IMG/VR virus record: IMGVR_UViG_2585427766_000008
Span: 1-16,666 of that record
Strand: one strand, 5' to 3'
From: a virus
Taxonomy: Duplodnaviria; Heunggongvirae; Uroviricota; Caudoviricetes
Length of the DNA: 16,666 nt
Every line of letters begins with the position of its first letter. The stretch's first letter is position 1. Below are positions 1,058 to 15,867 of the stretch, in pieces. Position numbers and translations under genes: made by a program. The notes under the pieces are model-generated. The model searched no databases. It saw only the letters and a program-made list of their open reading frames with translations, and was not told where the DNA came from.

Positions 1058-1315
1058 CTATGATTTGTCGCCGTACTCGCTTTTTATTTGCTCTTCAGCC
1101 TGCTCCAGCCACATCTCCAGATCGTCAGTATCGAGGGCATCAATCTCCCCCGGCTGAAACCGGAACCATCTCGCCAGCAGCCCCTGCGCCTGCGTCAGCG
1201 CCCTAGTTGCTCTCACCCATCCCCGTGATGAGCTGAAATCGTTTCTGTAACTGCAGGTAATCAGCCAGATCCATATTGTCGAGATCTTCCGGGAGAAGAC
1301 CAGTACTGCGGGCAA
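1058..1315 (-). CDS. Candidate frameshift extension of the tail assembly chaperone (E'/GT-like), in the +1 frame relative to the upstream chaperone ORF
   Basis: Overlaps the 3' end of the 1203-1475 ORF by 113 nt in a different frame and ends 75 nt before the tape measure start. Its acidic C-terminal tail (DALDTDDLEMWLEQAEEQ) resembles chaperone extensions. It is unlikely to be expressed from its own ATG. Confidence 0.45.
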   Translation of the reverse strand: MPAVLVFSRKISTIWIWLITCSYRNDFSSSRGWVRATRALTQAQGLLARWFRFQPGEIDALDTDDLEMWLEQAEEQIKSEYGDKS

Positions 1316-1475
1316 TCAGCGGTTCGTCCCAGTCTGCCGGGTTTTTGCTGATTTTGCGCACCTGCTTCAGGTCTTTTACCGTCAGGCGTTTCAGTTCAAC
1401 CTGCTCAATTCTGGTGCCTGCAGCAGTGGTGAAGGGATAAGACAATTTAAAAGTATCGGATGGGGTCTGTGACAT
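1203..1475 (-). CDS. Tail assembly chaperone (P2 gpE-like / lambda G-like)
   Basis: 90-aa ORF between tail tube and tape measure, with RBS AGGAG 7 nt upstream of the ATG at 1475. Acidic C-terminal half (PEDLDNMDLADYLQ). Its 3' end overlaps a second ORF in another frame, the usual arrangement for tail chaperone frameshift pairs. Confidence 0.55.
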   Translation of the reverse strand: MSQTPSDTFKLSYPFTTAAGTRIEQVELKRLTVKDLKQVRKISKNPADWDEPLIARSTGLLPEDLDNMDLADYLQLQKRFQLITGMGESN

Positions 1476-15096: not shown

Positions 15097-15867
15097 ATGA
15101 AAATGCAGACATTACCCATCGTTCCATGGATTGGTGGCAAACGCCGCCTTGCAAAACACATCCTGCCGCTGTTTCCGGCGCATGAATGTTATGTGGAGCC
15201 GTTTTGTGGGGCAGCAGCGCTCTATTTTCTTAAGGTACCCGGCAAGATCGAAGTCATTAATGATATCAACGGTGAACTGGTGAACCTGTATCGGGTGGTA
15301 AAACATCATCTGGAAGAATTTGTACGCCAGTTCAAATGGGCGCTGGTCAGCCGGCAGATCTACAAATGGCTGCAGATCACCCCGGAAGAAACACTGACGG
15401 ATATCCAGCGTGCAGCACGGTTCTACTACCTTCAGAAGCAGGCGTTTGGAGGCAAGGTGGCGGAGCACAGCTTTGGTACCTCCACCATATCCCCGCCACG
15501 CTTCAACCTGCTGCGTATTGAAGAAGAACTGTCAGCGGCACACCTGCGGCTTTCCAGAACGGTCATAGAACACATGGACTGGCAACAGTGCATAGAACGA
15601 TATGATCGCCCGCATACGTTGTTCTACTGTGACCCTCCATACTGGGGAACGGAAGGTTATGGTGTGGAGTTCGGACTAGAAAATTATGATCATATGGCAG
15701 ATTTAGCACGCAGGATCAAAGGGAAGATGATTATATCGGTGAACGATATCCCGGAAATGCGGCAGGCATTCAACGGTCTAAATATTCAGTCGGTTGATAT
15801 CAGCTACAACCTCAAGATCACTGGCAAATCCAGTCGCAAGAAGGAACTCATTATCCTCAACTTTTGA
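15097..15867 (+). CDS. DNA N6-adenine methyltransferase, D12 class (Dam-like), orphan
   Basis: 256-aa ORF with the N-terminal AdoMet-binding motif (PWIGGKRRLAKHILPLFP...YVEPFCGAAALYF) and the catalytic DPPY motif (FYCDPPYWGTEGYG). No restriction-endonuclease partner is visible in the window. Confidence 0.85.
   Translation: MKMQTLPIVPWIGGKRRLAKHILPLFPAHECYVEPFCGAAALYFLKVPGKIEVINDINGELVNLYRVVKHHLEEFVRQFKWALVSRQIYKWLQITPEETLTDIQRAARFYYLQKQAFGGKVAEHSFGTSTISPPRFNLLRIEEELSAAHLRLSRTVIEHMDWQQCIERYDRPHTLFYCDPPYWGTEGYGVEFGLENYDHMADLARRIKGKMIISVNDIPEMRQAFNGLNIQSVDISYNLKITGKSSRKKELIILNF

Follow-up and report, generated by a model that had tools for sequence, protein, structure and literature searches.

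Recoding has a textbook example in the programmed frameshifts of tail chaperone genes, for which +1 and −2 forms are documented. Here, we describe the tail assembly chaperone gene, and the overlapping reading frame that extends it, of a BcepMu-like Escherichia coli prophage carried on a 16,666-nucleotide (nt) stretch of viral DNA (IMG/VR record IMGVR_UViG_2585427766_000008), which we call the window. Coordinates refer to this whole stretch, and all genes of the tail region lie on its minus strand. Our analysis indicates that the long form of the chaperone would be made by a +1 ribosomal frameshift at CGA_UUU_C (CGA at 1241-1239; UUU at 1238-1236, encoding Phe80; C at 1235), a site picked out by its family-wide conservation, and we put the probability of this reading at about 0.72. 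That some net +1 recoding event yields the long form is very likely; its ribosomal nature, its placement on this codon, and its efficiency we infer. If correct, this reading adds a specific +1 site for the widespread BcepMu-like prophages. The comparisons also indicate that the chaperone stop codon and an upstream G-rich tract, which a first-pass annotation of the window had proposed as the shift signal, are irrelevant to the shift.

Reading frames of the chaperone and its extension

The chaperone open reading frame (ORF), the equivalent of P2 gpE and BcepMu gp41, runs from ATG to TAG at 1475-1203 (stop included) and encodes 90 amino acids (aa). The Pfam family Phage_TAC_7 (PF10109) covers residues 8 to 82 (E = 1.9e-22) and was the only Pfam family reported for this protein at E ≤ 0.01, with Gp41_Mu not among the matches. 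The overlapping ORF appears in the ORF list at 1315-1058 and encodes 85 aa. The first-pass annotation described the geometry of this pair correctly. The two ORFs share 113 nt (1203-1315). Codons on the minus strand start at 2 mod 3 in the chaperone and at 1 mod 3 in the extension, which places the extension in the +1 (equivalently, −2) frame, and this frame stays open through the chaperone stop, where it reads ..A ACU AGG GCG CUG... The −1 frame is closed, being open solely from −7 to +8 nt around the stop, and no canonical −1 heptamer of the form X_XXY_YYZ occurs in the overlap.

The part of the +1 frame that would be read after the shift comprises 58 codons plus a stop (1234-1058) and corresponds to P2 E', as judged from its homologues, its match to phrog_8286 (E = 2.7e-34), and its +1 periodicity. 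The last 47 residues of the extension peptide gave conserved tblastn matches in Klebsiella, Salmonella, Ralstonia, Pseudomonas, and Pasteurella phages, with E values down to 1e-10, and the peptide is also conserved in the Burkholderia (BcepMu) relatives. Its resemblance to Pfam Phage_P2_GpE (PF06528) is weak (18.3 bits against a cut-off of 23, E = 0.0016, 33 of 37 profile positions), and a comparison with NCBIfam gave no match for the predicted fusion or for the extension. The product name given to the extension by the Prokaryotic Genome Annotation Pipeline (PGAP) is "GpE family phage tail protein." Judged by its conservation, the extension is a genuine coding sequence.

Annotated phage records, species-representative genomes, and viral contigs (the last of these gathered through five single-protein scans) supplied 174 related loci, across which the frame relation was compared. 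Frames were called with two small hidden Markov models (HMMs), built on the chaperone domain and the extension motif, respectively. Of the 174 loci, 162 carry the extension in the +1 frame, and these span Enterobacterales, Salmonella-like, Ralstonia, Pseudomonas, and Burkholderia BcepMu groups. It is in the −1 frame in nine loci, all belonging to one clade that comprises Pasteurella phage AFS-2018a and its relatives. Genomic indels have brought it in frame in two loci (L016 and L097), and the one remaining locus gave no frame call because its contig stops before the extension. Members of the Pasteurella clade (L021 and L167 to L174) carry a canonical A_AAG_GGA heptamer directly before the zero-frame stop, and a Leu is aligned with the Phe that is conserved elsewhere. 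Conservation of this breadth indicates that the +1 requirement is real and old, and the Pasteurella loci indicate that shift direction has switched within one chaperone family.

The first-pass annotation had suggested following both the frame relation and the stop-codon context through homologous pairs; the former is conserved, as described above, whereas the latter is not. It had also allowed for homologs with the extension in the −1 frame and a classic slippery heptamer that had been misread in the window. Such an arrangement does exist in the Pasteurella minority, but the window itself has no such heptamer.

A search of a large protein database with the predicted fusion returned natural in-frame proteins of 138 aa (P0001 to P0011). 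Their junctions are scattered and mostly represented by single sequences (ESNQ|ALTQ, KSDK|TLMQ, VSAG|EIDALD, ITG|WVRAT, and others far upstream), and the two genomic fusions, in Apirhabdus apintestini (L016, CP138906.1) and in L097, also have differing junctions. These natural fusions probably stem from assembly indels or sporadic mutation rather than from a stable fused lineage, and as such are uninformative about the shift site. Separately, the locus L003/L024 (NZ_PJIO01000028.1, 8241 bp), recorded as "Arthrobacter sp. GMC3," encodes a chaperone whose first 90 residues are those of the window and which, lacking the TAG, runs to 111 aa; it is probably E. coli DNA contaminating an actinobacterial assembly.

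UUU_C as the candidate shift site

To locate the shift, 92 unique junction sequences from five clades were compared. The interval in which a shift is permitted is bounded upstream by a +1-frame TGA that stands 8 nt before TTT in the Ralstonia and Pseudomonas clades, with no re-pairing codon between the two. Downstream, it is bounded by the earliest zero-frame stops, which occur 11 codons after the Phe codon in the window and 9 codons after it in two Salmonella-like viral contigs (L152 and L156; ..FQAMLSMAA*), whose early, independently acquired stop thus narrows the interval. A zero-frame TTT followed by C is found at the same alignment position in 92/92 junctions and is the sole family-wide feature of the permitted interval. 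Entropy is 0 at all three TTT positions, compared with ~1 bit at neighboring third positions (Asp and Tyr codons), and TTC was never seen at the conserved Phe codon. The residue after Phe varies (Gln, His, Leu, or Arg), yet its first base stays C, which suggests that the nucleotide itself or the +1 frame is constrained. Phe is encoded in both frames at this codon, as would be expected when a single tRNA-Phe re-pairs from UUU to UUC. Among the Phe codons of the high-GC clades, TTT is in the minority, at rough fractions of 0.22 to 0.33; this and other codon-usage figures given here are rough, as they take in all ORFs of 120 codons or more on a single strand and include spurious frames in high-GC loci.

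The Enterobacterales and Salmonella-like sequences read CGA_TTT followed by CAG, CAA, or CAT, with a single CGG_TTT_CAG, and the Ralstonia sequences read CGA_TTT_CTG, with a few CAG. Pseudomonas loci have GTG_TTT_CGG or ACG_TTT_CAA, and Pseudomonas phage Bise has GCA_TTT_CAA. The Burkholderia BcepMu loci (L103 to L115) have TCC, GCC, or TCT before TTT and CGC or CGT after it, with the site lying ~12 nt short of where the chaperone HMM match ends. In the 86 unique enterobacterial and Salmonella-like sequences, CGA is nearly fixed (0.09 bit at its third position), and in those loci it accounts for roughly 9% of Arg codons; it is almost invariant in the Ralstonia clade too. From this near invariance, the 5' codon would seem to be part of the signal.

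Codon-position selection passes from the zero frame to the +1 frame within ~30 nt downstream of the Phe codon. Over the 90 nt upstream of TTT, entropies at zero-frame positions 1, 2, and 3 are 0.40, 0.26, and 1.03, as for a zero frame under selection. From +3 to +30 nt, they are 0.89, 0.62, and 0.90, a mixed pattern that fits dual coding. From +60 to +93 nt, the values of 0.70, 0.20, and 0.16 are those of a +1 frame under selection, zero-frame position 1 being position 3 of the +1 frame.

In the mechanism that we propose, the majority of ribosomes would stay in the zero frame and produce the 90-aa chaperone, and a minority would shift +1 at CGA_UUU_C (1241-1235). Two routes may be envisaged. 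Either peptidyl-tRNA-Phe (anticodon GAA) would slip from UUU to the overlapping UUC, or Phe-tRNA would enter UUC directly after CGA had been decoded by I:A wobble; both would give the same protein, and the choice of step is conjectural. Shifted ribosomes would then read AGC UCA UCA and so on to the stop at 1060-1058. The predicted product has 138 aa, join(1475..1236, 1234..1061), and ends ...LQLQKRF-SSSRGWVRATRALTQAQGLLARWFRFQPGEIDALDTDDLEMWLEQAEEQIKSEYGDKS, with the junction ...QKRF|SSSRGW... By analogy with lambda gpG and gpGT, the short and long forms would coat the tape-measure protein and recruit tube subunits, and shifting by a few percent of ribosomes, the level seen in lambda, may be enough. 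There is precedent for both parts of the site. UUU_Ynn is a +1-prone site in E. coli, and a +1 shift within UCC_UUU_CGU yields influenza PA-X, where the 5' UCC codon affects efficiency; at the yeast Ty3 site, CGA is among the few codons able to replace GCG, and the incoming tRNA may bind out of frame (PMC5009743).

It is also important to set out the observations that weigh against a shift at UUU_C. No stimulator was found, in that the fold of the 131 nt of RNA downstream is no stabler than that of shuffled sequences (z = −0.53), and there is no Shine-Dalgarno-like sequence upstream of UUU_C. The zero-frame codon after UUU (CAG, CUG, CGG, or CGC) is not rare, and the codon 5' of UUU differs among clades (CGA, GUG, UCC, or GCC). 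Invariance of UUU_C could in principle be explained by dual coding alone, if both proteins need Phe at this point. PGAP, for its part, treats the extension as a separate small gene. Finally, when the site UUU_UGG proposed for Yersinia yopN was mutated, the YopN-TyeA hybrid was still made (PMC3789692), and therefore assigning a shift site from sequence alone can be wrong.

Alternative explanations for the frame offset

The shift might instead take place on a glycine run, ACG_GGG_AUG (1226-1218), with tRNA-Gly moving +1 from GGG to GGA or −2 as in Mu. This run is inside the permitted interval of the window, and the verified −2 shift of Mu occurs on a G run in a similar context (ACGGGGGCGAGUGG in Mu compared with ACGGGGAUGGGUGAG in the window). 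The run of the window, however, consists of just four Gs, phased so that a −2 slip would land on CGG. Most relatives have ACU_GGG_CUG at this point, where a +1 move would land on GGC and find no pairing, and both Brenneria L017 (ACA GGC CUG) and the Salmonella-like clade (GCC AUG CUU) keep the +1 arrangement with no G run. We consider a shift on the glycine codon unlikely.

Another explanation dispenses with frameshifting and has the extension translated alone, as a "GpE family" protein of ~46 aa. PGAP makes such a call in E. coli EcPF7 (L175, NZ_CP054232.1, 1546-1963), whose copy of this allele is identical and in which the extension is a separate coding sequence (CDS) of 46 aa; furthermore, in this allele a GUG (the Val of GWVR) follows the G-rich tract. 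Against this, the start of the PGAP CDS would be CUG, the GUG is GCA in most relatives, and the +1 frame has no conserved start codon or Shine-Dalgarno sequence. The +1 frame is conserved from TTC onward, and its ORF in two clades opens a mere 3 codons ahead of the shift codon, with no start codon there. The homologous P2 product is also annotated as an E+E' fusion. Independent translation of the extension is thus decidedly unlikely.

The TAG and the frame offset could alternatively be pseudogene lesions of a dead prophage from which nothing is expressed. An IS66-family element does interrupt the tape-measure gene at ~185, and PGAP marks the chaperone as a pseudogene. The +1 offset is nevertheless ancestral, being common to the isolated phages PhiKM, KP12, BcepMu, and Komp_PAO1_1 and to 162 loci. 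The TAG allele is found beside an intact tape-measure gene in EcPF7, and this 90-aa allele (protein P0012) is present on 914 contigs; moreover, an independent clade has a zero-frame stop that comes even earlier. Decay appears to hold for tail building by this particular genome, whereas as an explanation of the frame relation it is refuted by conservation, and we regard it as highly unlikely in that role.

The first-pass annotation pointed to a prfB-like event at the chaperone stop. In such a model, ribosomes would pause on AAC_UAG_G (1208-1202), the upstream G-rich tract would act as a Shine-Dalgarno-like stimulator, and the junction peptide would be FQLITGMGESNR. The +1 frame is indeed open across this stop, and the tract is present (ACGGGGAUGGGUGAG, 1226-1212), although its GGGGAUGGGUGAG portion ends 6 nt upstream of UAG and not 9 nt as had been stated. 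The stop, however, is peculiar to this lineage. The TAG at 1205-1203 arose by a private C>T substitution at 1205, which is silent in the +1 frame (ACC>ACU); PhiKM and nearly all close relatives have CAG here, and in them the zero frame extends to 111 aa. In other relatives, its length is 104 or 102 aa, and zero-frame stops fall at five different positions across the family. As these positions vary, the zero-frame tail past the chaperone domain is therefore dispensable.

The tract fares no better as a stimulator. Most relatives have ACU GGG CUG GGC AAG in its place, and it is probably a by-product of dual coding, with the zero frame encoding TGMGE and the +1 frame RGWVR. As read from the sequence, tRNA-Asn would be unable to re-pair in moving from AAC to ACU, and selection on the two frames is already mixed in the 30 nt between TTT and the stop. 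PGAP, too, reads the TAG as a disabling internal stop. The window thus lacks each hallmark of prfB-type shifting, namely, a conserved stop 3' of the shift codon, a re-pairing codon (CUU_U, CCC_U, or UUU_U), and a conserved 5' stimulator, and it has that of UUU_Y sites, a zero-frame UUU followed by a pyrimidine (UUU_C, 1238-1235). A shift at AAC_UAG_G is hardly credible, and the comparisons indicate that the zero-frame stop, 30 nt downstream of UUU_C, plays no part in the shift. Two further candidates were rejected: transcriptional slippage, for which the three-T run is far too short, and a +1 shift on AAA with a slow CGA next, the codon before CGA being variable (AAA, ACC, CGU, GAC, GCC, GAG, and others).

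Known recoding systems, annotation, and prophage context

Tailed phages set the ratio of their chaperone forms by −1, −2, or +1 shifts, with Mu using a −2 shift (Atkins et al. 2016 review, PMC5009743). The gpE/E+E' pair of P2 is like that of the window in several respects: both chaperones match Phage_TAC_7 (P2 gpE with E = 1.5e-12, the window protein with the value given above), the gene order is sheath, tube, chaperone, and tape measure in both, short forms have ~90 aa and long forms ~140 aa, and the extension of the window has its weak resemblance to Phage_P2_GpE. Shifting is placed on a Phe codon in both, at the C-terminal limit of the chaperone domain, and the two codons are no more than 3 alignment columns apart. 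The difference is one of direction, as P2 shifts −1 on G_UUU_UUU_G (GGU UUU UUG; the record annotates 19685), whereas the window would shift +1 at UUU_C.

In Mu, gp41 and gp41-extended (Mu_41/Mu_56) resemble the window pair in that they are a myovirus chaperone with an extension in the +1/−2 frame, preceding the tape-measure gene. Mu gp41 matches Pfam Gp41_Mu (PF23746, 9e-35) and is marginal for TAC_7 (24.7 bits). Unlike the window, Mu shifts −2 on CGG_GGG_CGA, five Gs followed by a rare CGA, and its record marks this shift as verified. The window has no run that would permit −2 re-pairing, its four Gs being out of phase and its relatives having three or none. A 2004 study by Xu, Hendrix, and Duda reportedly verified the Mu −2 frameshift and dealt with chaperone pairs of the lambda G/GT class.

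The lambda gpG/gpGT pair shares with the window its genome position and the combination of a short chaperone with a rare frameshift-extended form; neither lambda protein is in the virion, and both are needed in a set ratio (PMC5009743). Lambda differs in shifting −1 on a heptamer and in showing no detectable sequence similarity. The UUU_Y sites (UUU_Ynn in E. coli, influenza PA-X, and the proposed UUU_UGG of Yersinia) have the same UUU-pyrimidine core as the window, in unrelated genes and hosts. The UCC_UUU_CGC of the BcepMu clade is one base off the influenza A PA-X site UCC_UUU_CGU; the rare CGU of the influenza site is believed to aid shifting, whereas the following codon in the window is not rare. 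The true homologue is BcepMu gp41/gp42, from a phage of the same genus-level type, which shares the +1 offset and the UUU_C with the window but has a linker between shift site and conserved extension motif that is ~18 residues longer.

From these comparisons, we think it reasonably probable that the Phage_TAC_7 family reaches the same long product by a −1 shift (P2 and Pasteurella), a −2 shift (Mu), and a +1 shift at UUU_C, for which no stimulator was detected, in the BcepMu-like group, the last of these fixed across beta- and gammaproteobacterial hosts of widely differing codon usage. One chaperone family would then use −1, −2, or +1 shifting at nearly the same point of the protein. If true, this would provide a natural and easily manipulated bacterial model both for +1 frameshifting at UUU_C and for the evolution of shift direction.

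Forward shifting in tail chaperones is already known, and the direction itself is not new. The training positives of PRFect included 350 forward slippery-site cases from SEA-PHAGES genomes, in which the joined genes were almost all tail chaperones (PMC10274946). Regarding BcepMu-like chaperone genes, we found no paper on a +1 shift in a search of openly readable literature, to which neither Xu et al. 2004 nor the BcepMu genome paper belongs, and the conserved +1 site of this group appears to be undescribed in the searchable literature.

None of the annotated records that we examined joins the two ORFs. PGAP treats the 90-aa allele of EcPF7 as a pseudogene bearing an "internal stop," and the annotation of EC958 (L176, 1546-1881) has the 111-aa zero-frame ORF only. 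The BcepMu record (L022, AY539836, 4603-5364) assigns the lambda G/T roles to gp42 and gp43 and leaves gp41 and gp42 unjoined. By homology, gp41 would be the chaperone and gp42 its +1 extension, and the labeling looks like a misannotation of long standing. The region is found in 637/5426 complete E. coli genomes, and the +1 route would thus have been missed by annotation in ~12% of them. The correct long-form product would be required for engineering of PhiKM-like phages or tailocins.

The chaperone and extension ORFs sit between the tube gene and the start of the tape-measure gene (982), which is where tail chaperone pairs belong. The tail sheath gene (3805-2378; Pfam Phage_sheath_1) is followed by the tail tube gene (2378-1857; Pfam Phage_tube, E = 2.9e-53), the equivalent of P2 FII and the upstream neighbor of the chaperone module. 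Between the tube and chaperone genes is a small ORF of 93 aa (1854-1573), whose match to DUF7739 is weak (24.9 bits, under the cut-off of 27); it is "frameshifted" in the EcPF7 annotation and intact in the window. Mu-type head genes (Portal_Mu, Mu F, Mu Gp27, Gp36, and Gp37) occur farther along the window. The element is thus a BcepMu-like E. coli prophage, combining a Mu-like head with a P2-like tail. Its nearest isolated relative is Escherichia phage PhiKM (genus Bcepmuvirus), with 99.2% identity across this region. Among solved structures, no relative was found by sequence.

Only the first 266 codons of the tape-measure gene remain (982-182; Pfam PhageMin_Tail), compared with ~900 in the intact gene. 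The 3' end of the IS66-family element adjoins the gene at ~185, the C terminus of its transposase being encoded on the plus strand at 12-155 (Pfam DDE_Tnp_IS66_C, E = 6e-18), and similarity to intact prophages ends at position 186 of the window. None of the complete E. coli genomes in the collection spans this junction. As judged from this truncation, this prophage copy would be unable to build tails. The frameshift cassette is intact but probably idle here, and interruption of the tape-measure gene by the insertion makes it likely that the module is a relic. A gene for a D12-class N6-adenine DNA methyltransferase (Pfam MethyltransfD12, E = 7e-28) is located at 15097-15867 on the plus strand, opposite to the prophage structural genes.

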